Shown piece by piece: positions 41,161 through 61,754 of a DNA stretch of 64,000 nt. Each line of letters opens with the position of its first letter. Within the stretch, counting starts at the first letter, position 1. Under the pieces are notes generated by a model, which worked only from the letters and a program-made list of their open reading frames with translations, was not told the origin of the DNA and ran no database searches. This DNA is from a virus (lineage: Duplodnaviria; Heunggongvirae; Uroviricota; Caudoviricetes): IMG/VR virus record IMGVR_UViG_3300005323_000037, positions 51,988-115,987 of that record; one strand, given 5' to 3'. A program made the translations under genes and the position numbers.

Positions 41161-41749
41161 GTCCTGCTAGTCGGCTCATTGGGGGGAGGGTCGCGAGATT
41201 CTCCCCCTTCTCTTTAGAGTAGACTTGCAACTTTTCTTGGTACTTCTGCTCTTTATCACAGTACATGCGTTCAACTTTTCTTGGTGCTCTGGTTCACTTG
41301 CCGGCTTTTAGTTGGCAGCTCATTTTGCTTATCCGACTATGCTTGTCACTCGGTTCTGAACTCGCAAAGCGGTCGATCTGCAATTAATAATATTTGCGCT
41401 ACTGTACTCCAAAAATGGGAGGAATGAAAATTATTTCCAGAATTTGCAATTTTCGTCGCAACGCGAACTTTTCTTCAATATTAGCGTTGCATTACTGTGG
41501 CTAATATTTGACAGGAATGAAAATGGCTTTATGAATTGGTAATTGCACGGTGATGGCACTGGAATTTGGATAATCCAAATGAGGAGCTTACAGACTTGGG
41601 ATATAAGTTGGGATAAAAGTTAGCTTATTTACTGTAATTATTGAAGCTGGGAAAATCTAAAATAGTCGCTTGTACACATGAACGCTTACTCATATGTGCA
41701 AGTGACTGAATTGGATAATCCAAATCTCAATCTAGGGAGGAATTGAACA

Positions 41750-41965
41750 ATGGACATGTACGATATCTACTACTGTTCTGATGAAGAGCCCGTCGCTGAT
41801 AGCTCTAACAAAAGTATGAAGAATTCCTTGCTGTTGGATGAGTATACTACATACATGCAACGGTCATCCAGCGGCATCTATGATGAGGAGCACCAGAACC
41901 TGTATTTCGATCGCGCTATGGAGTTGCGTAAGCGTATTCTGGACGCCATGAACAGAGTTGGATAA
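41750..41965 (+). CDS. Hypothetical small protein
   Basis: RBS GGGAGG. Preceded by the palindrome. Confidence 0.35.
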   Translation: MDMYDIYYCSDEEPVADSSNKSMKNSLLLDEYTTYMQRSSSGIYDEEHQNLYFDRAMELRKRILDAMNRVG

Positions 41966-42086
41966 TCCAAAGTTCAAGCCTTGACAATTGATATCTCTTG
42001 CTGGGTAGCTATGGCGCTTATAGTTACTCAGCGTGGGCCGATCAATTGAGTATCGGTATAGTTGAACTATATACAGTGAGGATAAG

Positions 42087-42278
42087 ATGAAACAGAGGAC
42101 ACAAGCGCAATTACGCAAGTTGTCTACGCAAGAGCTGCTGGATTTGTATGAAGAAAATTTGTGCATAGGCTCAGATTCCTGCTCGTATTACAGCCTGTAT
42201 GAGCAGGCGCTACACTCTGCTCGTGCTGACAAGGCGCGTGCCGAGATCATGCGTAGATTGGAAGCGAATACGAAATAG
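42087..42278 (+). CDS. Hypothetical small protein
   Basis: 63-aa ORF. Confidence 0.3.
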   Translation: MKQRTQAQLRKLSTQELLDLYEENLCIGSDSCSYYSLYEQALHSARADKARAEIMRRLEANTK

Positions 42279-42326
42279 AACATACTTAGCTTACTGTCTA
42301 TCTATACCATTTAGGTAGACAGTGAG

Positions 42327-42566
42327 GTGAGCGCGTTACTTACCATTTGGATAATCCAAAAGGAGTCTGGAATGCCTAGCTTCATCGCTTTCCAAGTTCA
42401 GTATCAGTCTGTACTGTTTGCAGTTGCTAGTGTCGCAACTGTACTGATTTGCATTCATGCTCGCGAGCGAATCCTGAAGCGCGCTTGGATGGATGCAGTT
42501 GTGGCCCTACTGTTAGCGGTGCTAGTTATGACTCTGGCGTTCAGGACGTTCTTCTACTTGGGGTAG
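42327..42566 (+). CDS. Small membrane protein (2 TM)
   Basis: Hydrophobic. Preceded by the palindrome. Confidence 0.3.
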   Translation: MSALLTIWIIQKESGMPSFIAFQVQYQSVLFAVASVATVLICIHARERILKRAWMDAVVALLLAVLVMTLAFRTFFYLG

Positions 42567-42609
42567 TTGACAATTTGGATAATCCAAATCTGCGCACAAG
42601 GAGAGAACT

Positions 42610-43020
42610 ATGAAAGCGCGTGGTATTCCAAAAAGTTATCTTAGTGTTCATCGAAACGATGTTGTGGAGTGCTATGAGTACAAGTACGACATCAAAGATA
42701 GAGGCAATACGGACAATGTTGCTCGTTTCTACAATTGGGCATGGGATTCCAAATGTGGAGATGCACCATACTCGCCATGGACAGTGCTACTTGATGCAAA
42801 AGGGAGACGTATACTGGTAGCTCATGGCACAGAGGATGGAGTATTATTAGCGCCGATCGAAGAAGCAGAACAAGCTGATCGCGTTATCTGCTGCTACTCC
42901 GATCAGGTCAAGTATCAACATCCTGACTGGAAAATAGCAGTATGTAAGTACGACCTTACTGTCGTAGAGGTTCGTAAAGAGGTACTATACGTATCGTCGT
43001 GTAAACAGGAAGTTGGATAA
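42610..43020 (+). CDS. Hypothetical protein
   Basis: 136 aa. Palindrome plus AAGGAG upstream. Confidence 0.35.
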   Translation: MKARGIPKSYLSVHRNDVVECYEYKYDIKDRGNTDNVARFYNWAWDSKCGDAPYSPWTVLLDAKGRRILVAHGTEDGVLLAPIEEAEQADRVICCYSDQVKYQHPDWKIAVCKYDLTVVEVRKEVLYVSSCKQEVG

Positions 43021-43055
43021 TCCAAATCTCAAGCCCACTCTAAGGAGATAGTATT

Positions 43056-43563: not shown

Positions 43564-43824
43564 ACTGTAAATAATAATAGGTCTATATACGCTTTATTTT
43601 TCTTGTGTGTTTGATGATACATTGTGCAAGCCTGTAATGTATCTGAAGATACGCTTTCAGGAAATAATCCGTATATAACAATTTATATTTATACAGGCTT
43701 AGATTGGAGTATGCTATATAACAACAGATACATTGCAAAAATAAAGCGTATGTAGACTTGTTATTACATACGGACTATTTCCTTGACATAATGAAAGTTG
43801 GATAATCCAAATCAGGAGGCTACC

Positions 43825-44033: not shown

Positions 44034-44228
44034 ATGTTACTTACTGTAAAACTGGATCACGATCGCCATTGTCATCATTTCGATATTGCTAGTTCACTCA
44101 ATAGTAAAATTGCTAAAGCTGCTATCCGTGCTATTGGCGGTAGCAGAGCTACTGGTACGGTCAAGTGCGAACAGTGTATCTACCGCGTGGACGGTAAGAG
44201 CGCGATAAGAATTTGGAAAGATGTTTGA
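44034..44228 (+). CDS. Hypothetical small protein
   Basis: 64-aa ORF. Confidence 0.3.
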   Translation: MLLTVKLDHDRHCHHFDIASSLNSKIAKAAIRAIGGSRATGTVKCEQCIYRVDGKSAIRIWKDV

Positions 44229-44284
44229 GTTGGATTATCCAAATTTCAATCTTACACTAAATATGATAACAGGAAAGGATTAGC

Positions 44285-44891: not shown

Positions 44892-44942
44892 CTTCAATTT
44901 GGATAATCCAATTCCCATTCTCGTACTGAAAGGAATACTATC

Positions 44943-45351: not shown

Positions 45352-45600
45352 ATGATTGTCAATCATCGCGCTACTGAACTACCAATCAAGCATACTGAGT
45401 ATGGTGAGCGCATGCTCTGGTGCCATAGCTGTAGAGCATATAGTGAAGTAGTGGAAGTAGATTACGGTAATGGTGGCAAAGCTTGGCTATGCTACCATTG
45501 TCGCAATACTGTTGCCACTAGAGAGGTAAGAGCAAGCAATGACTGTACGCCAATGAAGAAGACGGTAGTAAGGAAGTGCAAGCACGATCATAGTAAGTGA
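45352..45600 (+). CDS. Zinc-ribbon small protein
   Basis: CHSC...CYHC. Start moved to MIVNH. Confidence 0.3.
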   Translation: MIVNHRATELPIKHTEYGERMLWCHSCRAYSEVVEVDYGNGGKAWLCYHCRNTVATREVRASNDCTPMKKTVVRKCKHDHSK

Positions 45601-45643
45601 TTTGGATTATCCAAGTCTTAGGATTATACAAAGGAGAAGAGTA

Positions 45644-46454: not shown

Positions 46455-46904
46455 ATGACTGATTTTGCTGTTGGTGATCGCGTAATCGTTCGCGACGACC
46501 ATATTAATTTAGAGAACGGTACAGGTACGGTCGTTACTGGACTGAGAAACACTTATGTAACAGTAAAATTGGATAATCCGCCAAAAGAATGGGGAGATTC
46601 AAGTACATGTCTATTCTATCCCAAGGAGTTAATGCTGCTCAATGATAAATGTATGTATGTAGTCTGGCTACCAATCGACCTCGATAATGGTGAGTTTGAA
46701 TTAATCGCTACTGCCAGCACGGAAGAGCTAGCTATCAAATATGCTTTCGATGAGGTTAGAAAGTTCTACAAGTATGACATCACTGACTGCGAGATTAGTA
46801 AATGGTCATTAGGAAAGATCATTTGGGTAGGCGCAATTAGTAATGCAACTAACTCTCTTATGCAGAGAGAATATGCAGTCGAGTGTGTACCATTTATCGG
46901 ATAA
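46455..46904 (+). CDS. SH3/KOW-like GDRV-family protein
   Basis: N-terminal AVGDRVIVRDD. Confidence 0.3.
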   Translation: MTDFAVGDRVIVRDDHINLENGTGTVVTGLRNTYVTVKLDNPPKEWGDSSTCLFYPKELMLLNDKCMYVVWLPIDLDNGEFELIATASTEELAIKYAFDEVRKFYKYDITDCEISKWSLGKIIWVGAISNATNSLMQREYAVECVPFIG

Positions 46905-46931: not shown

Positions 46932-47597
46932 ATGTCTGATCAATTTGAATATGCAAAGTACACGAGTCAAAACTATATCAGAGACGGTGATTATGCCGGT
47001 CATTGGGAGGATACCGATATTGATGGCGAGGATCGTTTATACTGTGGCGATCTAGAAGAATGTACCACTGGTGATCTGATGGTCATCCCATATACTGTCT
47101 ACTCAGACTATAGTGGTAGCACAGTTGATCGTTCTAACTGCGATGTATTTCTTGAGCGTTACGGTAAGCGAGCCGATGTATGGGAAACCTATGGCGGATT
47201 TGGCACACGCGGTGTAATCATGCGACGCAGGGTATATGACGATCCTCAGACTGAGGAAGAGGAAGAGATCAGAGAATGTATTGATAGTCTGTTCAATTAC
47301 CCGCTGATCGACGAGGAGCATCATTCTAATCTAGAATTTGAGCTTGAAGAAGAGGGCTGGAATGATTACGGCAGAGACGACTTGCGACGCGCGCTGAAGA
47401 AATCTGCTATTTATACTGATGAAGAGCTAGATGATATCAGCGATGAAGTTCTAGATTGGATGTGGTATGTAGTTTGTGATGTAGAGGCAATTTATCCGCT
47501 CTTTGAAGACGCGGTTAGCTGCTACTTCTATATTGATGAAGCAGTCAAGGCGTGGAACAAAGATATCTTGAAGGATAAGGAGGATAACAATGGCTAG
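46932..47597 (+). CDS. Hypothetical highly acidic protein
   Basis: 221 aa, D/E-rich. Confidence 0.3.
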   Translation: MSDQFEYAKYTSQNYIRDGDYAGHWEDTDIDGEDRLYCGDLEECTTGDLMVIPYTVYSDYSGSTVDRSNCDVFLERYGKRADVWETYGGFGTRGVIMRRRVYDDPQTEEEEEIRECIDSLFNYPLIDEEHHSNLEFELEEEGWNDYGRDDLRRALKKSAIYTDEELDDISDEVLDWMWYVVCDVEAIYPLFEDAVSCYFYIDEAVKAWNKDILKDKEDNNG

Positions 47598-47934
47598 TCC
47601 AATCTTTATTCAAGAAGAGTATGTAGACGTATCGGATAGCGAGCATCAGTATAGCACTGGCACAAGTGAGGTGTACGAGACCACTTACACTACTAATGAA
47701 GTTGGCGATCTATACCGCGCGCTTCAAAAAGAGCATGGCAGGTGTGTCAGTAAAGTATACATTGATCGCAAGAATGGTGAGCCAAGAGCAATTGGCTGGG
47801 TATTTCGTAAGCGCGAAAGGAGAGACCATTGCTATAAAAGTAGCGACACGTATTTGCTTGAAACTTGGGTAACGCTATATTCAGGCAAGCCAATAACTAC
47901 TGTTACTTATACTGAACCAATTGTAATTGGATAA
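47590..47934 (+). CDS. Hypothetical protein
   Basis: 114-aa ORF. Confidence 0.3.
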   Translation: MASPIFIQEEYVDVSDSEHQYSTGTSEVYETTYTTNEVGDLYRALQKEHGRCVSKVYIDRKNGEPRAIGWVFRKRERRDHCYKSSDTYLLETWVTLYSGKPITTVTYTEPIVIG

Positions 47935-47954
47935 TCTAATAGGAGGAACTCATA

Positions 47955-48254
47955 ATGGAATACAAACAGGGTAGGCAAATCTCATATAGCACTCATGGAC
48001 AAGCATATTCTACTAACGGCGATGCGTACAGTGTTCATGGCGATGCGACATCAGTTAATGGAGATGCTTACAGTCTTCATGGTTACGCTAAATCTGGAAG
48101 CGGCAACGCATATAGCATTCATGGCTGGGCGCACAGCGATACTGGTAATTGCTATACTGGAGGAAAGGCGCATCAAGCATTTGATGAGATTGAAGCATAC
48201 ATAGAACGCAGAAATCCCGATGGAACTCCAAGGTGGAATGGGGATAAAAAGTAG
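47955..48254 (+). CDS. His/Tyr-rich tandem-repeat protein (octapeptide repeats GDAYSxHG)
   Basis: At least six imperfect repeats, with a matching nucleotide periodicity of about 24 nt. Confidence 0.35.
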   Translation: MEYKQGRQISYSTHGQAYSTNGDAYSVHGDATSVNGDAYSLHGYAKSGSGNAYSIHGWAHSDTGNCYTGGKAHQAFDEIEAYIERRNPDGTPRWNGDKK

Positions 48255-48284
48255 ATTGGATAATCTAATAGGAGAGCATAGACA

Positions 48285-48629: not shown

Positions 48630-48735
48630 GCATTAGCTTACTACAGTCCAATCTGTACCTGGGGAATAAAACTAATTTTGGGAACGCGCAACTTACTCGA
48701 AACGGATTTGGATAATCCAAATTAGGAGATTAACT

Positions 48736-49191
48736 ATGCTCACTCTATTTTGTACCAACTGTCACACTACTTGGTATATTGATCCTGAAGAAGCTAGCTA
48801 CTTTGGCTTGGATACTAGCTTACCCAAACAAGACATTGCTTGCTGTGCTGTCATTGGACAAGAGTGTATTCCAACTGAGGCAGATGTAACATGCGAACGT
48901 TCAGTTGCGGAGCTTGGTAGCATATCTACTGCCACAATGCGAGTAGAGGACTTGTTACCAATCTTCACTGAAGTGCTATCATATCTCGATACGCTCAGTG
49001 AATACACTTGGCTAATTGATGAGTGCGAGCAGATTATTGCAAGAGCGGACTGGGATTCAGAAGAAACATTTTACGTACTGAATGAAAGCCTATGGGATGC
49101 GCTAGATTCATTCAGTCCAGAAGGCGCATACTTTGGAGCACATCCAGGTGATGGATCGGATTACGGTTACTGGATGGCGGAGGAAGAATAA
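48736..49191 (+). CDS. Hypothetical acidic protein
   Basis: 151-aa ORF. Confidence 0.3.
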   Translation: MLTLFCTNCHTTWYIDPEEASYFGLDTSLPKQDIACCAVIGQECIPTEADVTCERSVAELGSISTATMRVEDLLPIFTEVLSYLDTLSEYTWLIDECEQIIARADWDSEETFYVLNESLWDALDSFSPEGAYFGAHPGDGSDYGYWMAEEE

Positions 49192-49204
49192 TTGGAGAAA
49201 GTTT

Positions 49205-49501
49205 ATGATTGAATACTGTTACCTGCTACGCGCTAATCATTACTATGCTGGCGCAGGTAATCCAATCGGTATAGCCACAACTATTGCTAAAGCTAAGCAA
49301 TTAGCTAAAGCATACCTGGCTCACGAAGCCGCATATGAAGGAGTAGAATGGAAAGGTAAGATGCTATCCCTACAAGAAGGCATTTGTGATCGTCAATTGG
49401 TAGTGTGCTGCGATAAGATTAGCATGCTAGTACACATTGATAAGCTGCCACTGAACGATCTTGAAGATTACTATAAGTTGGATAATCCAAATCGGAAATA
49501 G
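49205..49501 (+). CDS. Hypothetical protein
   Basis: Start moved to MIEYCY. Confidence 0.3.
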   Translation: MIEYCYLLRANHYYAGAGNPIGIATTIAKAKQLAKAYLAHEAAYEGVEWKGKMLSLQEGICDRQLVVCCDKISMLVHIDKLPLNDLEDYYKLDNPNRK

Positions 49502-49512
49502 GAGCAACAATC

Positions 49513-50289
49513 ATGGAAATCCGCTATTCAAACGATGTACCAGATGACAGTTATTTCTTGGGGCATGATGTAGAGCCAATTGTAGGTAAACGAGTTACTG
49601 TACTTTACAACGGCAATGGCAAAGGTGGCAAATGGGGTAGGCCAGGAGTAACTAGCACTGCTGTAGTACAAGAGAAGAACTTTCTTGCTATTCATGTTGG
49701 CTATCATCATAAGTATGGTGGCGGACAGTTCTGGCGCTACTATAATATTAATGGTCTAGGCATCGCTACACAAATTACATGGCGCAGTCTGTCAGATGAA
49801 ATGCGCGAGACTGTACTGGATAATTGGCAAGACTTTGCACCTGCATGGGCACGCTGTCCAGGTAAGTTGCGTTCAGCATATATTAGTCCTAAACAGAATA
49901 AGTTTACTGCATTCAAGATTGTAGAAGTCCTTGATGACGGGTCATTTGAAAGCCTTTATGATCATACTAAATATGTAATTGGTCGTACTATGACTCAGCG
50001 CGCTCTTCGGCATCACAATGGTGGCTACTATGTTTATCCGGGCAGTGATGCCAAGGAGAGATTCTTAGCTGGCAAGATTGCGTATAGATACCCAGGCAGA
50101 TTTGCTATACTGGAATGCGAATGTTGGGGCAATACTGTTCGCTATGATAGTAGTGGCAATTGTATTGATGACGCATGGTATTGTGATGATATGAATGCGC
50201 ACAAGATAGCGGTAACATACTGTAAGCCAATTACTGTACGTGAAGAGTTTAGAATAATGGCCGAAGATGTTGGTAGATGGTCTAAATAA
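49513..50289 (+). CDS. Hypothetical protein
   Basis: 258-aa ORF. Confidence 0.3.
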   Translation: MEIRYSNDVPDDSYFLGHDVEPIVGKRVTVLYNGNGKGGKWGRPGVTSTAVVQEKNFLAIHVGYHHKYGGGQFWRYYNINGLGIATQITWRSLSDEMRETVLDNWQDFAPAWARCPGKLRSAYISPKQNKFTAFKIVEVLDDGSFESLYDHTKYVIGRTMTQRALRHHNGGYYVYPGSDAKERFLAGKIAYRYPGRFAILECECWGNTVRYDSSGNCIDDAWYCDDMNAHKIAVTYCKPITVREEFRIMAEDVGRWSK

Positions 50290-50301
50290 TAAGGAGGCAA
50301 T

Positions 50302-50496: not shown

Positions 50497-50498
50497 CA

Positions 50499-52218: not shown

Positions 52219-52221
52219 AAC

Positions 52222-52884: not shown

Positions 52885-52887
52885 ACA

Positions 52888-53297: not shown

Positions 53298-53299
53298 TT

Positions 53300-53626
53300 A
53301 TGAGGATGCTTGATCTATTAACAATTGATGATGATGAAGAGTTTACAGCCACAGTACATAAGCATAGCGTAGATATTATCAAATGTATTCTTGATATACT
53401 GCTCAAACCTGATATAGAGCAGCTAAAACTGGATGATAGAATAGTAGAAATAATAAGCGCCGGAGCATGCGATATACTACAAAGCGTTATTGCTAAAAGA
53501 GGAAGCGATAAGCGCGCTATATATGAGTGCGTTGAGGGCATTGTAACATCTTCTTATATGGTCGGCCAACTTAGTGTAGACAATCTTGTTGAACTATATG
53601 AAAGGAATTTCAATGAAACTGTCTGA
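53300..53626 (+). CDS. Tandem paralogue 1 of a four-gene family (MxLxxLLxIDDxEEF...)
   Basis: Aligns with the next three ORFs along its full length. Confidence 0.35.
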   Translation: MRMLDLLTIDDDEEFTATVHKHSVDIIKCILDILLKPDIEQLKLDDRIVEIISAGACDILQSVIAKRGSDKRAIYECVEGIVTSSYMVGQLSVDNLVELYERNFNETV

Positions 53627-53930
53627 GCTACTTGCAATTGAGAGCGACGAGGAATTTACTGGCAAAGTACATAAGTATAGTGTAAGTGTTACTGAGTGCA
53701 TTTTAGTTGCGCTGCTCGAATCTAATGTAGAACAACTAGAACTAGATAATAGGATAGTGGAAGCAATAAGTATTGGAGCACACGATGTATTACAAAGCGT
53801 TGCTGCTAGAGAGGGAATTGGTGAGAGCGCTGTATATAAGTGTGTTGAAGGCGTTGTTGCATCGGCTTATATAGCTGGACAACTTGGCGTAAGTAATCTT
53901 GTAAAATTATGCAAAGAGGAACTCCTATGA
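53613..53930 (+). CDS. Tandem paralogue 2 (MKLSELLAIESDEEF...)
   Basis: Start moved to MKLSELL. Confidence 0.35.
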   Translation: MKLSELLAIESDEEFTGKVHKYSVSVTECILVALLESNVEQLELDNRIVEAISIGAHDVLQSVAAREGIGESAVYKCVEGVVASAYIAGQLGVSNLVKLCKEELL

Positions 53931-54259
53931 AACTGTCTGAGCTACTGGCAATTGAGGATCATACAGAATTTTGGAATGCAGCGCTTGAGCATAGCGTGGA
54001 CGCCATTGGCGAGCTTGAAGATAGACTGAAATCAATATTACGGTCAGGCTTAGACGATCGTCTAGTAATGGTTTTCGGCGTGGTCGCATATAATCTGCTG
54101 CAATTTGTCATACGTTCTGTTCTGGCTGGTGAAGAGAAGAATGAGTATGCTGTATACGAATTTCTTTGCGGCACCATTGGCAACGCGTATATAATGGGGC
54201 AGATTGGCGCGAGCAATCTCATCAAATCACTTGAAGAGGACAATCATGAAGCTATCTGA
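53927..54259 (+). CDS. Tandem paralogue 3 (MKLSELLAIEDHTEF...)
   Basis: Start moved to MKLSELL. Confidence 0.35.
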   Translation: MKLSELLAIEDHTEFWNAALEHSVDAIGELEDRLKSILRSGLDDRLVMVFGVVAYNLLQFVIRSVLAGEEKNEYAVYEFLCGTIGNAYIMGQIGASNLIKSLEEDNHEAI

Positions 54260-54605
54260 ATACTTGAGCTTGCCTACTGTACCCGATCAAATTGATGCCA
54301 TCGACAATCATGGACATGAACTTCTCGCTGCAATTGCTGCGTCCGTAGATTACCTGCCCACACTAGACAGTAAGGAGATGGCTATGTGTGGACTAATGAG
54401 TGTCATTATTGAAAACCTTGCTATGATAACGAGCAGCGCTTCTGTATTTGTTGTTGATGTCATGACTATAGCTATGCTTTTATATAAGATTGCTAGCATG
54501 GACTTATCTGTATTTGCCGAGCATGTTGATGGAGTGAACTTGGATAATCCAATTTCAATTAGAAGCACTATCAACTTTCTTACCGAGCGACTGGCAGAGG
54601 AATAA
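54246..54605 (+). CDS. Tandem paralogue 4, divergent (MKLSEYLSLPTV...)
   Basis: Start moved to MKLSEY. Confidence 0.3.
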   Translation: MKLSEYLSLPTVPDQIDAIDNHGHELLAAIAASVDYLPTLDSKEMAMCGLMSVIIENLAMITSSASVFVVDVMTIAMLLYKIASMDLSVFAEHVDGVNLDNPISIRSTINFLTERLAEE

Positions 54606-54610
54606 AATGT

Positions 54611-55069
54611 ATGCTAATTGTATTTGGAGTGATAGTTATTGTACTGATAGTAATTGGAGTAGTACGCAGGAGTGTGTTTGATAGCGTCAAAGCAGTCAAT
54701 ACATGTAAGGCAATTGACTATGCATATCTAAATTCTCAGTCAGATACTGTTCAATCACCCGTAGCGCGCTACCATGGTACAATCATTACTGATGAAGCAC
54801 GCGTGCGTGAAATCATGTCTGCCGAGGACTACGCCGCGGCTACGGTAAATGGTACGCAGCAACTAGAAGCCATTCCTAAGCTAACCGTTAGCGACGACGT
54901 AGCAATTGTTCAGTATCCCGATCATCAGCAAGTAATCAGAGCAGATCAGAACACGTTAGTTGTAGTGGAGTCTAAGTATGGTGCACCCAATGCTAGGCAG
55001 GTTGTACTGGACTTGCCCGCGGTATTAGAAATTCTATGGCGATTCAAAATCATTGAGAGGATAGAATAA
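54611..55069 (+). CDS. N-terminally membrane-anchored protein
   Basis: MLIVFGVIVIVLIVIGVV TM helix. Confidence 0.3.
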   Translation: MLIVFGVIVIVLIVIGVVRRSVFDSVKAVNTCKAIDYAYLNSQSDTVQSPVARYHGTIITDEARVREIMSAEDYAAATVNGTQQLEAIPKLTVSDDVAIVQYPDHQQVIRADQNTLVVVESKYGAPNARQVVLDLPAVLEILWRFKIIERIE

Positions 55070-55070
55070 T

Positions 55071-55280
55071 ATGAGCGACTATGTTACTAGCTGGGAAGAC
55101 TTGAAGAGTATCATGGCTGATAAGGGGCATTGCTTTTATTGCTATGTAAGCTCTAGCATTGTGTATCAGGCATTACTGTCGGATGATCAAGGACGCTTAC
55201 CGGATGGCAGACAAGTTTACTTTACTCAGGTTGGTAATCTAGAAATCTTTGGAGCAGATTTTATGGGAAGTGAATCATGA
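55071..55280 (+). CDS. Hypothetical small protein
   Basis: 69-aa ORF. Confidence 0.25.
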   Translation: MSDYVTSWEDLKSIMADKGHCFYCYVSSSIVYQALLSDDQGRLPDGRQVYFTQVGNLEIFGADFMGSES

Positions 55281-55726
55281 CTACACGCGAAGAACTAATT
55301 GATCTGCGCAATAAACTTGCAGTAGCTAGGGAACTATCAGCATCCACCAAGCAAGCAGTAGATGACTTACTGGCAAAGGTACGAGCCGACAATGTTGAGC
55401 TATTTACAGAGCTAGATCTAATCAAGGAGCGCGTAGGAGAGTACGAAGATCAACTCCGTACGGCAGGTATTGCATATTTTGCAACAACTAAGGATAAGCA
55501 TCCAGTTACTGGCGTCAACATCAATGATGCTACTGTTATCGAATACGATAATGAGAAGGCGCTAGAATGGGCAAAGAAAAATACCAACCTGCGCTTGTTG
55601 AAGTTGGACGATACTGCGTTCAAGGGACTGGCTAAGTCTAAGGCTAAGCCAGATGATATGCCAGTTACTGTATACAGTGAGCCTAAGACGGTGCTCGGAA
55701 CTAAGCTGGAGGTGAGCAATGAATAA
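55277..55726 (+). CDS. Hypothetical coiled-coil protein
   Basis: 149-aa ORF. Confidence 0.3.
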   Translation: MTTREELIDLRNKLAVARELSASTKQAVDDLLAKVRADNVELFTELDLIKERVGEYEDQLRTAGIAYFATTKDKHPVTGVNINDATVIEYDNEKALEWAKKNTNLRLLKLDDTAFKGLAKSKAKPDDMPVTVYSEPKTVLGTKLEVSNE

Positions 55727-55857
55727 CACGGTGATCTGCATTAGCAATAGAGAACTTGTTGAAATAATTGCCGGAGTAGACGACGCTGATTTTGTAAGCG
55801 TTTACCCGCGTGCTGCGTACATCACAGACGATGGCGACGTAGAAATTGTAGTAGACT

Positions 55858-56085
55858 ATGAGGAGAATTACGATGATGAATGAGCAAACTATTCCTGTAA
55901 TAGTTTTCAGTGAAACTATTGTAACCAACGTAGAAAAAGCGGTACAAATAAGTATAGACTTAAGCGATATTGTTCAAGACAAGCAAGCGCGAGATGTAAA
56001 CATTAATAATGTTAGCTATCACGCGGAATGCAGCAACGCTATATTTACTTTCAATGTATCATTCAGTACATATGAGGAGAATTGA
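55858..56085 (+). CDS. Hypothetical small protein
   Basis: 75-aa ORF. Confidence 0.25.
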   Translation: MRRITMMNEQTIPVIVFSETIVTNVEKAVQISIDLSDIVQDKQARDVNINNVSYHAECSNAIFTFNVSFSTYEEN

Positions 56086-56276
56086 AAATGGACGTCAATA
56101 TCGAGCTAGCTAACGTAGTTGTAAATAAGCGAATCATTTTGTATGCTGATATTTCTAAGTACATTCCTGAGTCAGCCATATATGTCAACATGGAAGACGT
56201 ATCTGGTACGATCAGAGATGGCAAAGTGGAAATTGAATTTAGTATCCAGTATGAAAGGGAAGATGATGAGAATTGA
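56082..56276 (+). CDS. Hypothetical small acidic protein
   Basis: 64-aa ORF. Last phage gene before the TnpB insertion. Confidence 0.25.
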   Translation: MKMDVNIELANVVVNKRIILYADISKYIPESAIYVNMEDVSGTIRDGKVEIEFSIQYEREDDEN

Positions 56277-56279
56277 TTT

Positions 56280-57565
56280 GGTAGGTAAACAACCCCATGC
56301 CTAAAGGCAGTGGGTTTGTCCCTGACGCTACACAGGTGACTCATTGACCCGTAGTGTAGTCGAGACGTTTGGCCGGTTTACTGCGGCCCTACTGGCAATA
56401 TTGCCAGCAGCGATGTGGTCAGCAAGCCCGGAGAAGCCGCAAACCACGCAGAGGAAAGTAGATTGATTACGACGATTGGCCTTAGCGATGTGACCACAAG
56501 CAGGACAGGTACGCGATGTGTTGCGTGGATCAACCGTAAACACGGGAATACCGCGCAACTTAGCTTTGTATTCGATAAAGCCGCGCAGTTGGGCGAACGA
56601 CCAGCTATGCAGGGTTGCCCTCCGAGACTTGCGAACCGTGACCCGCTGGCTAATGCCGCCGAGTTCTTCGATGGCAATCGCCCGCTTTGTGTCTACAGCC
56701 TTAGCAACCAAATGCTTCGAGATACCGTGATTGACCCACTTAGCAAAGCGGGCCTCCTTGCCAGCAAGTTTATGCAACCTGCGACGCGACGACTTCGTAC
56801 CCTTCCGCTGCAACTTGGCACGCAGGCGGCGATGGCGATGCCTGACATTGTTGACCTGGCTGGACGAATGAACTTCACCGTCAGAATCAACCGCGATATT
56901 GACGATGCCGAGATCAACACCCAACGCGCCCTCAATGTCAATTGGATCCGGTTCCTGCACTTCGCAGGTGGCCGACAGGTAGAAGTTGCCGCGGAAAAGG
57001 ATCAGGTCACTCTCGCCCTGCCGACTGGCGAGCAAGGCGCGTTGTCGCTCGCCACGGACGAATGGAATACGCGCGCGACCACTTGCTGTCCAGATCGAGA
57101 CTTCCGACTTGTCCACGTACCAATGCAAAATACGGTCATCGTAGGCCATGGCGCCGATTGGTTTGAAAGTGCGCTTGTGCTTATGATCCAATTTGTAGGC
57201 ATCAGCCACCTTTGCCAGCAGGCGTACCACGACCTGTGCTGTCAGGTCGAAGCGTTCCTTCAACTCGTAGTACAGGGCTTTATGCAAGTCGTACTGTCGC
57301 CATGTGTGCGTGTTCCAAGCGTAATCGCTCACGTATTGGCTGGCAGCATTGGTCTGTTGCAGCGTCAATTCGAGAGATTTGTGCTGTTCTGGTGTAGGAA
57401 GGAGCTTCACTTGCGCGCTCAGTTTCATAGTTCACAGTATAGCACGGGAGCGCGGAGTTGTCAAATCTTGATAATAGCAACATGAGCAATGTATCACAAG
57501 TCCGTACGCATGGCCCTACATGGCCAGCTCCTATCCCTCCCCACGGCTGAAGCCGGGGGTATCCT
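56280..57565 (-). mobile_element. Solo-TnpB insertion element (IS1341/IS605-OrfB type)
   Basis: GC-rich block. Subterminal hairpins (CTACAC...GTGTAG and CCCCATGCC...GGCAGTGGG) overlap the tnpB 3' end. GC-rich left-end GGCC palindrome near 57510-57530. No tnpA. Boundaries approximate. Confidence 0.6.
56328..57428 (-). CDS. tnpB: TnpB (RuvC-like RNA-guided nuclease family)
   Basis: 366 aa with zinc finger CPACG...CVVCG and a RuvC-like split motif. Plus-strand ORF 56415-57485 is its antisense artefact. Confidence 0.8.
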   Translation of the reverse strand: MKLSAQVKLLPTPEQHKSLELTLQQTNAASQYVSDYAWNTHTWRQYDLHKALYYELKERFDLTAQVVVRLLAKVADAYKLDHKHKRTFKPIGAMAYDDRILHWYVDKSEVSIWTASGRARIPFVRGERQRALLASRQGESDLILFRGNFYLSATCEVQEPDPIDIEGALGVDLGIVNIAVDSDGEVHSSSQVNNVRHRHRRLRAKLQRKGTKSSRRRLHKLAGKEARFAKWVNHGISKHLVAKAVDTKRAIAIEELGGISQRVTVRKSRRATLHSWSFAQLRGFIEYKAKLRGIPVFTVDPRNTSRTCPACGHIAKANRRNQSTFLCVVCGFSGLADHIAAGNIASRAAVNRPNVSTTLRVNESPV

Positions 57566-57578
57566 GGAGGCTTTGATG

Positions 57579-57842
57579 AAGATGACGATAGTTGATGAAG
57601 ATATTAGTACAACATTTGGTTATGCTAGCGCGCCTACTGTATCGCCGCCAGAAACCGATCACAGGGTAGTTTACCTAAAGATTGCATTCGATGACGGTGA
57701 TATCATTGATGCCGCGGGAGAATTTGGATTATCCAAATATGATATCGGGCTTGAGGATGATAGAATAATTTGGAACAAGCAGACTAGAGAGTATGAGATT
57801 AATCTTACTATCTATGGCGACGATGTAATTGGAAGGAGATAG
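57579..57842 (+). CDS. Hypothetical small protein
   Basis: Start at MKMTIVDED with a GGAGG RBS. The track's 5' extension runs into the IS end. Confidence 0.3.
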   Translation, partial: KMTIVDEDISTTFGYASAPTVSPPETDHRVVYLKIAFDDGDIIDAAGEFGLSKYDIGLEDDRIIWNKQTREYEINLTIYGDDVIGRR

Positions 57843-57847
57843 CAGCC

Positions 57848-58750
57848 ATGATTCACTCGTATCCAAAAGTATATCAACTTGGACATAAAGCTATTTCTGG
57901 AATTTTAGATGGTCCAGTAGATGTAACTGAGAAAGTAGATGGCAGCCAATTTTCATTTGGCGTATTCAATGGTAAGCTGGAATGCCGCAGTCATAATAAG
58001 CAAATTGTTCTAGACGCACCAGAGAAAATGTTTGCAAGAGCGATCTTTACCTGTTATGAACTAGAGAAATTACTGTGCCCAGGCTGGACGTATCGCGGAG
58101 AATATCTGAACACTCCGCATCATAACGCTCTATGCTATGATCGCGTGCCGCCAAAGAATATTATTCTATTCGATATCATGACTGAAAATGTTGAATGCTA
58201 TTTGTCGTATAACGCCATGTACGAAGAGGCCAATCGTCTCGGCTTGTCAGTTGTGCCATTACTGTATAGTGGAGTGGTAGCAAGCAGGAGTGAATTGAGT
58301 AAGCTTCTCGATACTGTTAGTATTCTCGGCGGTCAGAAAATTGAAGGCGTAGTTATCAAGAACTACTCTATGCTTTCTCTGGACGACAAGATTGCCATGG
58401 CTAAAGTAGTGCGCGAGGATTTCAAAGAAGTCAACGCGACTAACTGGAAGGCGAACAATCCTGGTAAGCAGGATATTGTAGAGGAAATTGCTGCGCGCTA
58501 TGCTACACCGGCACGTTGGAAGAAAGCTATTCAACACTTGCGTGAAGATGGTTTGATTCAAGATGCGCCGCAGGACATTGGCAAGCTAATCAATGAAGTC
58601 AAGCGCGACGTGCTAGAAGAGGAATCTGAAGCGATTGCTAATATGCTGTTCAAGGAATTCTGGCCGCAGATTGCACGTAAACTGATTGCTGGTTTACCAG
58701 AATGGTATAAGGGCACGCTAGCAGATTATGCCTTTACTGATAAGGAGTAG
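57848..58750 (+). CDS. ATP-dependent RNA ligase-like nucleotidyltransferase (Rnl1-like motif I KxDGS)
   Basis: Motif I TEKVDGSQF, motif IV EGVVIK, motif V MAKVVREDFK. Confidence 0.55.
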   Translation: MIHSYPKVYQLGHKAISGILDGPVDVTEKVDGSQFSFGVFNGKLECRSHNKQIVLDAPEKMFARAIFTCYELEKLLCPGWTYRGEYLNTPHHNALCYDRVPPKNIILFDIMTENVECYLSYNAMYEEANRLGLSVVPLLYSGVVASRSELSKLLDTVSILGGQKIEGVVIKNYSMLSLDDKIAMAKVVREDFKEVNATNWKANNPGKQDIVEEIAARYATPARWKKAIQHLREDGLIQDAPQDIGKLINEVKRDVLEEESEAIANMLFKEFWPQIARKLIAGLPEWYKGTLADYAFTDKE

Positions 58751-58755
58751 CTACC

Positions 58756-60321
58756 ATGTTTCTACAAAGACTGCGCTTAGGGTTTGCGACCAATTCGTCA
58801 TCGAGTCACTCGCTCATCTGGATTCCAGGTAATACTAAATTCACAAGCGATCGCTTAGCATATGATGGTGGCTGGGGTTGGGATGAATTTGTTCTGGCCA
58901 CACCAAAAGCTAAAGCGTCATATCTGCTGTCGAATATCTACAATAACCTGCTTGGTATCATGAATGAAGATTATGCCAAAGCGGTTGTCGAGCACGTGTT
59001 AGCTAAGCAGATACATGTAAAAGTTGACTCAGACATGATTGGTTATGTCGATCATCAGTCAAGCATTATCTTGCCGCATAAGAGAGGGCGTTTCGGCGGA
59101 CGTCCTGATGTCGATATGGAATTCTTTACGAATGTATTTACTGAAATTGTGCAATCGCCAGATTATGTTATTATTGGCGGTAACGACAATAGTGATAATG
59201 AGTCACTTGATCCGATTAAGTGGGCTGGCGAGAAAGTAATCAGAACCGATGACGATAATATCTATAACTGGCTAGCCGAGCATAGCAACAGTAATCGTTC
59301 TTCTGTAAAGCAGGGCCGCTGGGGAGAGCGCTATAGTAAGGGCAGCTTCACCGCTCGCCGTGACGGCAGGTTCTGGACTATGTTCAATACTGTCAATGGA
59401 GCAAAGATTACTCTTACTACTAGCCCGGTCAGTGATAAGGATGCACGTGAAGCATATACTTATTCCACTGTACCAGAACTGATCGACCTAAAGATTACTG
59501 ACTTTTGCACTAAGGGATGTGAGTTCTGTTACGCCAACAGTAAGCATGACGGCAAGCACGCGTCCCTAGACAATGTTCGTTCCATTGTGTACGCTTTAGA
59601 TGATCTTGGTGTATTTGAAGTAACGCTTGGCGGAGGCGAGCCAACATTGCACCCAGATTTCTATAAGATTGTAAAGGAGTTCAATGATTACGGTATTGTG
59701 GTAAACTTTACCACTAATGATCACAGCTTCTTGAGCAAAGGCACCGATGCTAATGAGCGTGAGAAGAGAGAGATTATGAAGCTAGTAGGTGCAGTAGCTG
59801 TTACTGTGCGCAGCCTACGCGATTGCGAGCTGGCGCTTAGATTCAATGAGCGTTGCGGTGGATCGGTAGTATTCCAGATTCCAATGGGCACCGTATCGCG
59901 TAATGACTTTCATAATATTGGCGAGCTAGCCAGAGCATCCAAAATTCGTATGACATTACTGGGCTACAAGAATGTTGGACGCGGTGGCAGTTACAAGCCT
60001 ATTCCATATGACTGGTGGCTAGACGAGGTAGTTGAAACGTCTAAGTCTCAAGATAGCGATGATTACTGTTGGCTTAATAATGTTATCGGTATTGATACTA
60101 CTTTAGCTGCTCAGTATAAAGATAAGCTAGAGGCGCTTGGCGTGCCCGAGTATATGTATTACTTGCAGGAAGGCAACTTCTCGTGCGCAATTGACGCGGT
60201 GAATATGACTGTAGCTAAGTCGTCATATGATGGCGGTGCGCTTTCAATCAAACCGACTAGCAGATTGGTAGGTGTAGCAAATATGATCAAGAAACATTAT
60301 GCAACGTTTAGGGAGGCATAG
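58756..60321 (+). CDS. Radical SAM enzyme with ~240-aa N-terminal domain of unknown function
   Basis: CxxxCxxC cluster DFCTKGCEFCY near aa 245 and a GGGEPTLHP SAM-binding motif. Translationally coupled to the ligase gene. Confidence 0.65.
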   Translation: MFLQRLRLGFATNSSSSHSLIWIPGNTKFTSDRLAYDGGWGWDEFVLATPKAKASYLLSNIYNNLLGIMNEDYAKAVVEHVLAKQIHVKVDSDMIGYVDHQSSIILPHKRGRFGGRPDVDMEFFTNVFTEIVQSPDYVIIGGNDNSDNESLDPIKWAGEKVIRTDDDNIYNWLAEHSNSNRSSVKQGRWGERYSKGSFTARRDGRFWTMFNTVNGAKITLTTSPVSDKDAREAYTYSTVPELIDLKITDFCTKGCEFCYANSKHDGKHASLDNVRSIVYALDDLGVFEVTLGGGEPTLHPDFYKIVKEFNDYGIVVNFTTNDHSFLSKGTDANEREKREIMKLVGAVAVTVRSLRDCELALRFNERCGGSVVFQIPMGTVSRNDFHNIGELARASKIRMTLLGYKNVGRGGSYKPIPYDWWLDEVVETSKSQDSDDYCWLNNVIGIDTTLAAQYKDKLEALGVPEYMYYLQEGNFSCAIDAVNMTVAKSSYDGGALSIKPTSRLVGVANMIKKHYATFREA

Positions 60322-60322
60322 T

Positions 60323-60658
60323 ATGAGCTATACTGATTGGCACTCTATGGGCGATCGGTGTAAATTATCTAACGAACCAATTGACGACTTACTTGGCAGG
60401 ATTAGAGATTTGTATACGGGCGGCCCGAGTCCGAATTACAATCCAGCATACGCAAAGAATTCTATATGCCCGCTATGCAATAGAAGGCAAGTGTCTGGAC
60501 TGGCGCGAATAAACATGAAGCCGCTTGATGGAACTAACCTTTGCTGGGGCGACTGTAAGTGGGAGGCGGATAGCACGATTCCAATTACTGATGTAATTCG
60601 TATTATCGAATATTTTGAAGATCAAATTGATAGCTCGCATCGCGTGTATTTAGAATGA
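60323..60658 (+). CDS. Small zinc-binding-like protein (CPLCN...LCWGDCKWE)
   Basis: Paralogue of 60794-61075 (shared DGTNLCWGDC). Confidence 0.3.
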   Translation: MSYTDWHSMGDRCKLSNEPIDDLLGRIRDLYTGGPSPNYNPAYAKNSICPLCNRRQVSGLARINMKPLDGTNLCWGDCKWEADSTIPITDVIRIIEYFEDQIDSSHRVYLE

Positions 60659-60793
60659 CAGAGTATGTATCCGCTTCACTTTGGAGCATACTAATTGATG
60701 AGTATACATTTGATCCAGTAATTTCAATCTGGGTAGACGGCTTTGTTCCAGATGATGTAGATGAAAGCGAGATTATAGAATGGAGATTAGACA

Positions 60794-61075
60794 ATGAGTG
60801 AGCAAGTAGATTCTATTATAGCAAATGTTGAGTCTCTTTATACTGCCTTGCTAGGCGATCGCCCAGCACTCGATCGAGCTTATATCTCTGAAAATACATG
60901 CCATTACTGTGGCAAGCACAAGCCCACAGATAAAGCGTGGATTGAGCTTGATGATGGAGACGGAACTAACCTTTGTTGGGGAGACTGTTGGAGCACGTAT
61001 AATGTATCTATTGAGAGCGCTCTAGTACTGATTGCTGAAATCAAACGACTACGCTCTAAATTGGGAGAGGAATAA
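60794..61075 (+). CDS. Small zinc-binding-like protein (CHYCG...LCWGDCWS)
   Basis: Paralogue of the previous ORF. Confidence 0.3.
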   Translation: MSEQVDSIIANVESLYTALLGDRPALDRAYISENTCHYCGKHKPTDKAWIELDDGDGTNLCWGDCWSTYNVSIESALVLIAEIKRLRSKLGEE

Positions 61076-61077
61076 TA

Positions 61078-61485
61078 ATGGGCACACATGCACTGATCAA
61101 GATATACGATGAAGATGAAGAAATGCTCACTCAAATCTATCACCACTATGATGGCTATCCGAGCGGGGTGGGCAAAGAGCTTGCCGAGTTTCTTCTGGAT
61201 CGCAAGATAGTCAACGGATTCAATGATCCAAGTGAACTGCTAATAGCTAATGGCATGGGTAATCTTGCAGCGCAGCTAGTCTATCATTTTGTACAAGTAG
61301 ATGGTATGGTGGGTAATGTATACATTGAAGCGCCGTCAGATGATGTGGAAGAATATGTGTATGAAGTGCACTTTGGCGGCAGAGATGATGAGTGTTACGT
61401 AATTTGCTTTGCAGATGGAGAGATGGTATTTCATGGACTTCCAATGGAAATGTTGGGATGGATTGAAAGCGAGGAATGTCAATGA
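61078..61485 (+). CDS. Hypothetical protein
   Basis: 135-aa ORF. Confidence 0.3.
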   Translation: MGTHALIKIYDEDEEMLTQIYHHYDGYPSGVGKELAEFLLDRKIVNGFNDPSELLIANGMGNLAAQLVYHFVQVDGMVGNVYIEAPSDDVEEYVYEVHFGGRDDECYVICFADGEMVFHGLPMEMLGWIESEECQ

Positions 61486-61754
61486 TAGATTTGGATAATC
61501 CAAATGTCGAAGCTAGAGTAAAGCAATGGATGCGCGAGTATGTTGAAGAGGAATATTTGATCCTGCTAGATGAGAAGCTAGATGAGAATACTATCAATAT
61601 GACAGAGCTGGCTGAGATAGCCTGTGATCAGTTTGATTTGTTCGAGCCGCCGCCAGACTTTGATTGCCCGGAGGAAGTATTCTATTGGGCTTATGAAGTT
61701 AGCTGTGAGTACGAAGTAGAGCTCGATACTGATATTGGTGAGAGGGAGGGATGA
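61482..61754 (+). CDS. Hypothetical acidic protein
   Basis: Start at the second ATG. The palindrome lies in its first codons. Confidence 0.25.
   Translation: MIDLDNPNVEARVKQWMREYVEEEYLILLDEKLDENTINMTELAEIACDQFDLFEPPPDFDCPEEVFYWAYEVSCEYEVELDTDIGEREG

Follow-up and report, generated by a model that had tools for sequence, protein, structure and literature searches.

A conserved 13-bp palindrome at the gene junctions of one arm of an uncultured tailed phage

The window analysed here, a stretch of 64,000 nt, is part of the genome of an uncultured tailed phage and comprises two arms of opposite direction, one of which carries about twenty copies of a short palindrome, TTGGAT(A/T)ATCCAA, most of them between its genes. 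The leftward arm (1-38.4 kb, minus strand) holds the structural genes. The rightward arm starts at about 39.8 kb, reaches about 68.2 kb in a longer contig and is a row of some 75 small genes, almost all without a known family. The motif belongs to this second arm, and the following sections are concerned with its sequence, its behaviour among relatives and the roles it could play.

The motif and the rightward arm

Scanning the window for the 13-bp core with up to 2 mismatches gave 20 sites with at most one mismatch, spread from 39886 to 61503 and all in the rightward arm; the leftward arm held no copy, in agreement with the sequence-only reading that had first drawn attention to the repeat. 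That reading described a perfect 17-bp palindrome in about 20 copies. The number stands, as do the coordinates given for the copies (within 1-4 nt), but the central A is unpaired, the invariant unit is 13 bp and few copies match the 17-mer exactly: four on the plus strand (41564, 42573, 48706, 61489) and one on the minus strand (57722). With up to 3 mismatches the 17-mer gave 35 strand-matches, all within 41564-62373, against 0.25 expected and a maximum of 2 in 100 shuffles, which places it far above controls of shuffled composition. Three copies had been called partial; the first (39886) has one mismatch and the second (46569) two, whereas the third (57724) is a full copy with T at its centre. 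Two plus-strand sites with 2 mismatches are doubtful, 45619-45631 and 46569-46581 (the latter TTGGATAATCCGC, inside the open reading frame (ORF) 46455-46904), and may be chance matches or decayed copies.

The 20 copies are as follows, with L numbers standing for other contigs, followed by positions on them, and SD for the Shine-Dalgarno sequence:

39884-39900, plus strand (core from 39886): core TCGGATAATCCAA, one mismatch, in the 5' untranslated region of the first operon, 24 nt before the ATG at 39923; the ortholog at L128 1497 is perfect
41564-41580, plus strand (core from 41566): exact 17-mer, non-coding, after a terminator and upstream of the candidate promoter P2; kept in L128 (4028)
41709-41725, plus strand (core from 41711): 26 nt before the ATG at 41750, downstream of P2 and a conserved hairpin; kept in L128 (4171) and L204
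41956-41972, plus strand (core from 41958): internal TAA ends gene 41750-41965; a conserved TTGACA follows after 10 nt
42345-42361, plus strand (core from 42347): adjoins the SD (CCAAaaggag), 12 nt before the ATG at 42372; C11 to T in the L204 ortholog
42573-42589, plus strand (core from 42575): exact 17-mer, 22 nt before the ATG at 42610
43011-43027, plus strand (core from 43013): internal TAA is the stop codon of gene 42610-43020; 30 nt before the ATG at 43056
43796-43812, plus strand (core from 43798): 14 nt before the ATG at 43825; kept in L124 (118)
44228-44244, plus strand (core from 44230): centre T, with centre A in the L124 ortholog (1264); homology to L124 stops exactly here and the next gene differs
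44897-44913, plus strand (core from 44899): the L124 counterpart is two copies (2492, 2716) around an extra 59-aa gene
45600-45616, plus strand (core from 45602): centre T, with centre A at L124 3407; the downstream gene is unlike that of L124
46904-46920, plus strand (core from 46906): 13 nt before the ATG at 46932; kept in L121 and L124, with a spacer to the SD of 2-14 nt
47925-47941, plus strand (core from 47927): core TTGGATAATCTAA (C11 to T), internal TAA is the stop codon of gene 47590-47934; the L121 and L124 orthologs are perfect
48254-48270, plus strand (core from 48256): core TTGGATAATCTAA (C11 to T), 16 nt before the ATG at 48285
48706-48722, plus strand (core from 48708): exact 17-mer, 15 nt before the ATG at 48736; the upstream gene is unlike that of L121 and homology begins at the motif
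49476-49492, plus strand (core from 49478): within the 3' end of ORF 49151-49501 (LDNPN), 22 nt before the ATG at 49513; kept in L121
51211-51227, plus strand (core from 51213): within the 3' end of ORF 51051-51251, adjoining the SD, 15 nt before the ATG at 51241; kept in L121
54538-54554, plus strand (core from 54540): within ORF 54246-54605, 58 nt before the next ATG
57722-57738, plus strand (core from 57724): centre T, exact 17-mer on the minus strand, within the called ORF 57576-57842, about 300 nt from the start of a TnpB gene
61489-61505, plus strand (core from 61491): exact 17-mer, 9 nt inside ORF 61482-61754

Pooling the window with its relatives gave 43 non-redundant sites from four or more genomes, with practically no variation at any of the 13 core positions. 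At the centre 39 sites have A and 4 have T; G and C do not occur there. Beyond the core the consensus extends to A(-2), any base, core, A(+13) and T(+14), found in 37, 34 and 30 of the 43 sites respectively; A(-2) and T(+14) are mirror images about the dyad, and the A at +13 has no mirrored T at -1. Upstream of -3 no position is conserved, either in 21 sites of the window or in the pool. The substitutions seen in the core are C11 to T alone, at three independent junctions (47927, 48256 and L204 694), and the symmetric double change TTAGATAATCTAA, G3 to A with C11 to T, at L124 1853 and L228 603. The literature holds the exact motif sequence solely as unrelated primers.

The motif keeps close to gene starts. 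Fifteen of the 20 cores end 12-31 nt before a start codon, and the SD follows the core by 0-20 nt, closer than the 10-25 nt between motif and ribosome-binding site that had been proposed for most copies. At 42347, 46906, 47927, 48256, 51213 and L124 1264 the SD begins only 0-2 nt after the core, and at L124 7075 the motif appears, on our reading of the sequence, to lie between an SD-like AAGGGAG and the ATG. The rightward arm has 20 intergenic gaps that measure 20 nt or more, and 13 of them contain a copy; within 41.1-48.8 kb the proportion rises to 13 of 16. Where one gene follows the next with no gap, the copies (49478, 51213, 54540 and 61491) are kept within coding sequence and read L-D-N-P, and at 41958, 43013 and 47927 the TAA inside the motif serves as stop codon for the gene that precedes it.

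The head of the arm brings together the features around which its first copies are placed, all on the plus strand:

39787-39815, plus strand: promoter-like site P1, TTGACT-17-TAGTAT (TTGACT-17-TAAGAT in L128)
39923-41160, plus strand: first rightward operon, an 80-aa ORF (39923-40165) and a 301-aa ORF (40255-41160)
41181-41208, plus strand: strong intrinsic-terminator-like hairpin of 12 pairs with a T-rich tail, closing the first operon
41608-41638, plus strand: candidate promoter P2, TTGGGA-19-TGTAAT (TTGAAG-18-TATAAT in L128, as read from the alignment)
41671-41700, plus strand: conserved hairpin TGTACACATGA..TCATATGTGCA, between P2 and the copy at 41711, its pairing kept in L128 by wobble and compensating changes

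P1 would drive the first operon, in whose 5' untranslated region a copy lies 64-80 nt downstream of the promoter. In the conserved non-coding stretch after the terminator, the copies at 41566 and 41711 bracket P2, the second of them beyond the hairpin, which together with P2 probably forms a structured 5' untranslated region. A conserved TTGACA at 41981 follows the copy at 41958 by 10 nt. Also in the non-coding head of the arm, on the plus strand, CAACTTTTCTTG recurs just after hairpins or terminators at 39265, 41228 and 41272, with a version of 2 mismatches at 41465.

Beyond the TTGACA at 41981 the plus strand has no promoter-like site above 9/12 matches, and the promoter-like sites of the scanned region number 54, near the shuffle mean of 50.6. 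The terminator scan found no intrinsic terminator between cassettes or at any copy in the window. This scarcity of signals between cassettes fits long read-through transcripts, where roadblocks could act. Two copies outside the window are followed by no gene in their own direction. One, in a relative, stands between convergent genes (L128 4379); the other, L001 19465, corresponds to about 68.2 kb, shortly beyond the window, and marks the very end of the arm. The latter is the tip of a GC-rich hairpin with a 14-bp stem (L001 19446-19495; -25.2 kcal/mol, z -6.7), flanked by an A-run and a T-rich stretch between convergent arms, and the whole looks like a bidirectional terminator built around the motif.

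Relatives of the phage and exchange of cassettes

Contigs of relatives in other samples were reached by way of homologues of two proteins, one of 221 aa (46932-47597) and the 301-aa product of the first operon, and further ones by a metagenome scan with an 18-mer. The identical core stands at the same junctions in L121-L124, L128-L130, L204, L218, L219 and L228, whose proteins are 59-85% identical to those of the window, so that the conservation in homologous phages on which the sequence-only reading had made its proposal depend is present. Over 20 orthologous pairs of sites the core differs at 6 of 260 positions (2.3%), whereas in the 13-nt flanks 39% of positions differ upstream and 56% downstream. 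The centre flips between A and T at orthologous junctions with nothing else changed. Between motif and SD the spacer changes its sequence and also its length, which at one junction is 2, 4 or 14 nt, and this failure to keep the distance argues against a fixed translational geometry.

In the metagenome scan, several copies together occurred only in contigs of this phage clade, the other matches being single and due to chance, and a near-identity search of window positions 41-50 kb against 50,697 phage records (INPHARED) gave no match. The distant relatives of the 221-aa protein (L125, L126, L131 and L134; 36-43% identity, different GC content) lack the motif. An apparent motif repeat in L134 was rejected as a coding tandem array of pentapeptide type. 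L125 (42% identity in one protein, GC 35%) has a palindrome of its own, the 15-bp TTGACAC(A)GTGTCAA, in five copies:

L125 4, 2853, 6697, 8498 and 10691: intergenic copies of the 15-bp palindrome, one of which includes a start codon

A separate palindrome of this sort is the pattern expected of lineage-specific pairs of regulator and site. A scan of IMG/VR with a 15-mer gave, among the matches listed, chance matches and contigs in which the 13-mer belongs to a coding tandem repeat (..LDNPNAY..). The viral contigs L006, L041, L110 and L035 are of this sort and unrelated to the phage, the 13-mer occurring 4-6 times per contig and encoding L-D-N-P-N in a tandem-repeated protein domain; coding repeats of this kind produce false positives in motif scans.

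Comparison with the close relatives also revealed that gene content changes at the copies. When the window was aligned to its relatives, 11 of 30 BLAST segment ends lay no more than 15 nt from a copy, where random positions would give 1.4; the figure is inflated, as segment ends prefer gene boundaries anyway. The direct evidence from individual junctions is stronger. At three of them (F, H and B) the genomes are homologous upstream of a shared copy and carry a different gene downstream, and at a fourth (C) the reverse holds. L124 has an extra 59-aa gene between two copies (2492 and 2716) where the window has a single one (44899), and L219 likewise has an extra gene between copies 677 and 975 where L218 has one (558). 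Cassettes have been exchanged at the copies, whichever mechanism holds.

What could read the motif

The candidate mechanisms narrow to a sequence-specific reader of duplex DNA or of sense RNA. We tentatively favour the first: the core and its extension, A-N-core-A-T, would be the operator or roadblock site of a two-fold symmetric DNA-binding regulator specific to this clade and probably encoded by the phage, and would act as recombination microhomology as well. A centre restricted to A or T, and free to flip between orthologs, is what a symmetric binder would leave if it required an A:T pair at the dyad. A(-2) is mirrored by T(+14), and this symmetry spans the positions that would be the loop of an RNA hairpin and reaches to -2 and +14. 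The variable offset to the SD, the copies around promoters and the copies without a downstream gene would likewise point to DNA rather than RNA as the target.

Under this operator reading, host RNA polymerase would transcribe the arm from two or three sigma70-type promoters, namely P1, the candidate P2 and the TTGACA at 41981. Copies follow the first, flank the second and precede the third, then occupy almost every junction for the next 10 kb, and some twenty of them would place a rightward early arm of small ORFan cassettes under one common control. Close to the promoters a bound dimer would repress from an operator, and within the long transcription unit it would form a roadblock, in the manner of the stoperators and of the conserved inverted repeats (CIRs) of phage phiC31; it would switch the whole early set off or hold it silent. 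Sets of sites built in this way are established by experiment for the stoperators (PMC9283540). The CIRs and the KorB sites of plasmid RK2 are others of the design. Because the same 13-17 bp stand at every cassette boundary, the copies would also serve as microhomology, at which recombination could insert, delete or swap single genes. If the copies form a repressor regulon, its purpose may be temporal shut-off in a lytic phage rather than immunity. Across the 64-70 kb of genome seen, neither an integrase nor a lysogeny module was found, so a repressor of temperate type is not supported.

Several observations weigh against an operator role, among them that absence of an integrase or lysogeny module. 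The 30-odd proteins of the cassettes and those of the first operon have no function in Pfam or PHROGs and none is assigned as DNA-binding, and among about 60 proteins searched with either resource no regulator, sigma factor, polymerase, integrase or RNase was found. Operator sites for a dimeric regulator of the whole early set had been among the roles first put forward; we infer that this is the best fitting of them, although the search turned up no binding protein. A perfectly symmetric binder does not predict the bias to A at the centre (39 of 43) or the A at +13 (34 of 43) without a mirrored T at -1, an asymmetry that could reflect common descent of copies in the same orientation. The changes in the core, C11 to T three times (G.U) and TTAGATAATCTAA (A-U), follow the classic path of a conserved RNA stem. 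The authors who described the repeats of Cluster O phages also judged a transcriptional role unlikely for them (PMC4351075).

The best-placed candidate for the binder is, speculatively, the 301-aa protein of the first operon. It is encoded downstream of P1, is conserved in the motif-bearing relatives and combines a conserved helical N-terminal domain with an AT-hook-like KRGRGRPKG at its C-terminus. It matched no Pfam family and no sequence in the PDB; its AlphaFold model is poor (predicted local distance difference test, pLDDT, of 60) and Foldseek returned no fold match (best E-value 0.33). A profile search of 1.84 billion representative sequences retrieved its own clade only and no remote homologue, which adds to the points against the operator reading.

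That the motif acts on RNA had also been proposed, as a hairpin marking points of processing or translational control, and we retain this as a rival, if an unlikely one. Each transcribed copy would be a hairpin tag just 5' of the next SD, read by a phage-specific RNA-binding protein or endoribonuclease, and would allow processing of the transcript into cistron units, end protection or translation control of the RegA/RegB or Csy4 kind. Such a tag would explain why every copy is sense-oriented in a single transcribed arm, why 15 of 20 end 12-31 nt before a start codon directly ahead of the SD, and why the element is directional, with its centre bias and asymmetric flanks. The tolerated core changes keep pairing on the plus strand, one copy is the apex of the hairpin of -25 kcal/mol with which the arm ends, and at L124 7075 folding would shorten the spacing from the SD-like AAGGGAG to the ATG. 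The hairpin itself is weak. Its predicted fold, UUGGA-UAA-UCCAA, has a 5-bp stem and a 3-nt loop, instead of the 6 bp and 5 nt first given, and extends to 7-8 bp where the flanks pair. In seven contexts its energy ranged from -2.6 to -8.4 kcal/mol (z +0.3 to -2.2), no better than shuffles; it was missing from the minimum-energy fold of one context and only partly present in the centroid of another. Positions -1 and +13 are unpaired (G17/T14/A9 opposite A34) though both their neighbours are conserved, changes of A12 or A13 to G, or others that G.U pairing would permit, were not observed, and the spacing to the SD varies between orthologs. No Rfam family matched the motif, and no RNA-binding or RNase domain was found among the proteins of the arm. 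The pairing-type changes are few and can also be explained by descent in one orientation, by mutation bias (C to T on a G-rich coding strand) or by position 3/11 being the least critical contact. A structural hairpin acting alone is unlikely, since the fold is weak, the flanks show no paired covariation and it is sequence, not pairing, that is conserved.

A stronger version, in which a hairpin-specific endoribonuclease or RNA-binding protein of the phage cuts or clamps the early transcript at every boundary, and in which the same tag is an integron-like recombination joint, strikes us as improbable.

We hold it to be very unlikely that the copies are promoters, of a -10-only or a hairpin type, used by the host polymerase with a phage sigma factor or co-factor, or by a phage polymerase, to make one transcript per cassette. 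Dense repeated motifs upstream of genes are often class-specific phage promoters, as in T4 late, phiEco32 and T7-like transcription and in the hairpin promoters of N4 (5-7-bp stems, 3-nt loops), and the motif resembles them in standing directly upstream of most cassette genes. The GATAAT on which the proposal of an extended -10 promoter was built is present in the sense direction and the 39:4 bias to a central A favours it over GATTAT; it has the key A(-11) and T(-7), but the neighbouring TG, at -14/-13, is one base out of the extended -10 register. No -35 element and no AT enrichment of UP type lies upstream of the copies (21 sites in the window, 43 pooled), the occasional TTGACA nearby being 5 or 12 nt from GATAAT, and a palindrome is not expected of sigma recognition. 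With the SD 0-2 nt after the core, a sigma70 start placed 6-8 nt beyond GATAAT would lie within it, and several sites therefore leave no space for a start and leader. Promoters would also be out of place between convergent genes (L128 4379), at the apex of a terminator (L001 19465) and about 65-80 nt downstream of conserved sigma70 promoters, and the units they would define have no terminators between them. The arm has sigma70-type promoters of its own at its start, each with copies nearby, which makes one promoter per gene unlikely. An N4-type hairpin promoter depends on a giant virion RNA polymerase, with transcription beginning some 11 nt beyond the centre of the loop. Stem and loop would fit in size, but in 64 kb neither an RNA polymerase, a sigma factor nor any ORF above 521 aa was found, and the start would fall inside or beyond the SD at several sites. 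The T4-type elements that join an early promoter to a stem-loop (PeSLs) also shuffle cassettes (PMC4122927), which speaks for promoters. A site for an activator of a downstream promoter was excluded for most copies, there being no space for a -10 and a start before the SD.

We give equally little credence to the idea that the copies are primarily crossover sites of cassette exchange, served by a dedicated, integron-like site-specific recombinase or spreading as selfish, hitch-hiking microhomology with no regulatory role. It would account for the segment ends (11 of 30 near a copy), the single genes between two copies in L124 and L219 and the shared copies with different genes on one side at the four junctions, and similar behaviour is known from Cluster O repeats and PeSLs (PMC4351075, PMC4122927). 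Purifying selection on each of the 13 positions, next to flanks that diverge, is not accounted for by passive microhomology, nor are the copies kept within coding sequence (49478 and 51213, conserved in L121), and the segment-end statistic is overstated, gene boundaries being natural break points. Thirteen base pairs with a 1-bp centre leave no strand-exchange spacer for tyrosine or serine recombinases. The attC sites of integrons, served by an IntI integrase, are imperfect palindromes with R/L boxes and a length of 57 bp or more, in which structure is conserved rather than sequence; the present element has 13-17 bp. Scans of the window found no integrase or recombinase domain, tyrosine recombinases included, and the mobile-element genes are two TnpB without TnpA, which does not correspond to a REP/RAYT (repetitive extragenic palindrome and its transposase) or IS200/IS605 system with its Y1 transposase and subterminal hairpins; the rightward TnpB gene has no copy closer than about 300 nt, measured from gene ends and not from the ends of the insertion sequence, and none lies in the arm with the other TnpB.

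Restriction or methylation sites were rejected because they would not keep to gene junctions, and the boxes of host factors, compared by eye (Fur, FNR, a DnaA R3-like TTATCCAAA on the minus strand, CsrA GGA), because no more than 7-8 of the 13 invariant positions are accounted for by them.

Comparable repeats and the setting of the locus

The closest analogue in kind, though not a homologue, is the repeat of Cluster O (Corndog) mycobacteriophages, TGTTCGG-NNN-CCGAACA, a 17-bp presumed dimer-binding site of unknown function in more than 30 invariant copies (PMC4351075). Both repeats have dyad symmetry and an A/T-rich centre, are invariant, concentrate in one arm at short gaps or gene starts, keep their position among relatives, flank insertions and deletions with two copies and are absent from other phages (PMC4351075). 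Their sequences are unrelated, their plans differ (7-3-7 against 6-1-6), and host and phage lineage are not the same; in Corndog a third of the sites are well within genes, in both arms, whereas here about 80% are intergenic and in one arm.

The stoperators of Cluster A mycobacteriophages, bound by L5 gp71 or the TipsytheTRex repressor, are 13 bp long, number about 26-30 across the genome and block elongation (PMC9283540). Length, placement in short intergenic gaps and the combination of an operator at the early promoter with elongation blocks inside operons recall the present motif, a copy of which occupies 13 of the 20 gaps of at least 20 nt, with others beside P1, P2 and the TTGACA at 41981. 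Stoperators differ in being asymmetric, bound by a two-domain monomer, oriented with transcription in both arms and found in temperate phages (PMC9283540); the site described here is a 6-1-6 palindrome, asymmetric only at its centre and at +13, and no helix-turn-helix, repressor family or integrase was found among the proteins scanned in the 64-70 kb seen.

In Cluster K mycobacteriophages, start-associated sequences (SAS) and their extended form (ESAS) precede the start codons of many non-structural genes; their function is unknown and a translational role has been suggested (PMC3203893). They share with our motif a single orientation, the association with gene starts, 17-bp inverted repeats (ESAS) and retention across subclusters before different genes (PMC3203893). 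The SAS is asymmetric and contains the SD (GGGATAGGAGCCC), and the arms of the ESAS are imperfect and 4-13 bp apart (PMC3203893), whereas here a compact palindrome precedes a separate SD. Like T4-type PeSLs, the copies are short motifs that flank small ORFans in hyperplastic early regions and are points of single-gene homologous exchange (PMC2839356, PMC4122927), since they stand at the junctions where genes are inserted, deleted or swapped between close relatives. A PeSL has a sigma70 early promoter and a terminator-like stem-loop; our copies have no promoter and a weak 5-bp stem-loop.

Two further systems illustrate how one regulator can serve many sites. The present motif has the site pattern of a multi-copy palindromic operator: it is an invariant dyad of 13-17 bp, stands in ten or more copies and keeps to one phage clade. 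The CIRs of the Streptomyces phage phiC31, 17-bp inverted repeats in about 18 copies, are reportedly operators of the c repressor, and they resemble the motif as conserved repeats of an early region, near early genes and promoters and under one phage repressor; they accompany phage-specific early promoters in a temperate phage, whereas most copies here have no promoter, and the sequences are unrelated. The KorB operator OB of the IncP plasmid RK2 is an invariant 13-bp palindrome (TTTAGCSGCTAAA) in 12 copies, read by one dimeric global regulator at promoters and at a distance. It too is a multi-copy palindrome on a mobile element, but KorB belongs to the ParB family, of which no member was detected here, and OB sites do not stand at every junction. 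With an unrelated sequence in a different, uncultured lineage, the motif is of the same kind as these known repeats and not homologous to them: a well-supported regulatory and recombination motif of known type, not a new class.

The remainder of the window has its own signals and gene content:

4132-4857, minus strand: major tail protein
13979-14899, minus strand: major head protein
16699-17502, minus strand: head protease
31412-31498, 33509-33583, 33809-33881 and 36288-36374, minus strand: tRNA calls, among them tRNA-Leu(taa), tRNA-Ile(tat) and tRNA-Tyr(gta)
36111-38621, also 16650, 16673, 18195 and 25287, minus strand: promoters with TACTTGACAA
23715-24944 and 56328-57428, both minus strand: IS605-type TnpB genes (OrfB_IS605 and Cas12f1-like TNB domains)
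18206-19222, 6214-8858 and 31539-32450, minus strand: accessory genes of the structural arm

The promoters of the leftward arm form a near-consensus sigma70-type family, with an extended -35 TACTTGACAA followed after 16-18 nt by TATAAT or TATACT; seven of them are gathered in 2.5 kb at its head, around tRNA-Tyr. The control signals of the two arms are thus visibly different. Between the arms, a gene-free region of 1.4 kb (38464-39900) contains three direct copies of the near-palindrome GTACTAAAGTAC at 38651-38705, spaced by 21-22 bp, which could be an operator or iteron array; about 39 bp near them are kept in L128 (317-355). Rfam detected three tRNAs in the window and no other family at gathering score. 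A fourth tRNA, with an odd two-base anticodon, is an ARAGORN call that Rfam did not confirm.

The accessory genes of the structural arm encode a zinc-type alcohol dehydrogenase-like protein, a glycosyltransferase-like protein, an epimerase-like protein and an SPFH/Band 7 protein, an unusual set for a late region. In the rightward arm, the TnpB gene at 56328-57428 is oriented against the direction of the other genes. No TnpA was found in the window beside either TnpB. The nearest genomic relatives of the TnpB proteins (50-65%) come from metagenome-assembled genomes of Anaerolineae (65%), Roseiflexaceae (58%) and other Chloroflexota, a weak hint that the host may belong to this phylum. An RNA ligase (300 aa) and, directly after it, a 521-aa radical-SAM protein occupy 57848-60321, and an RlaP nucleotidyltransferase follows further along contig L001 (17680-18429). 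The best phage match of the radical-SAM protein is 28% identical (Salmonella phage Arash); tblastn gave distant matches alone, at 22-40% identity (Salmonella phage Arash, Microcystis phages and Thermus phages), and a protein-level search of IMG/VR found no relative. The window from 48756 to 64000 is identical to the JGI metagenome contig 3300027419 Ga0209340_1000587.

Multi-copy palindromes at gene boundaries are known in several phage groups, such as the repeats of Cluster O and the ESAS of Cluster K, and are mostly unexplained. The present case is unusually clean, with an invariant core, confinement to one arm, nearly one copy per junction, flanks 40-55% diverged and gene swaps exactly on the copies, in an uncultured lineage whose early proteins are all ORFans. 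Should the element act on RNA, it would represent a new mode of operon insulation, and as an RNA tag it would equip each ORFan cassette with an insulator of expression, at its 5' or 3' side, that travels with it, a natural equivalent of the Csy4 insulators of synthetic biology. If a DNA binder is found, the motif would be the global switch of an entire early 'ORFanage', a regulatory site that doubles as a joint and allows accessory genes to be shuffled without breaking their regulation.

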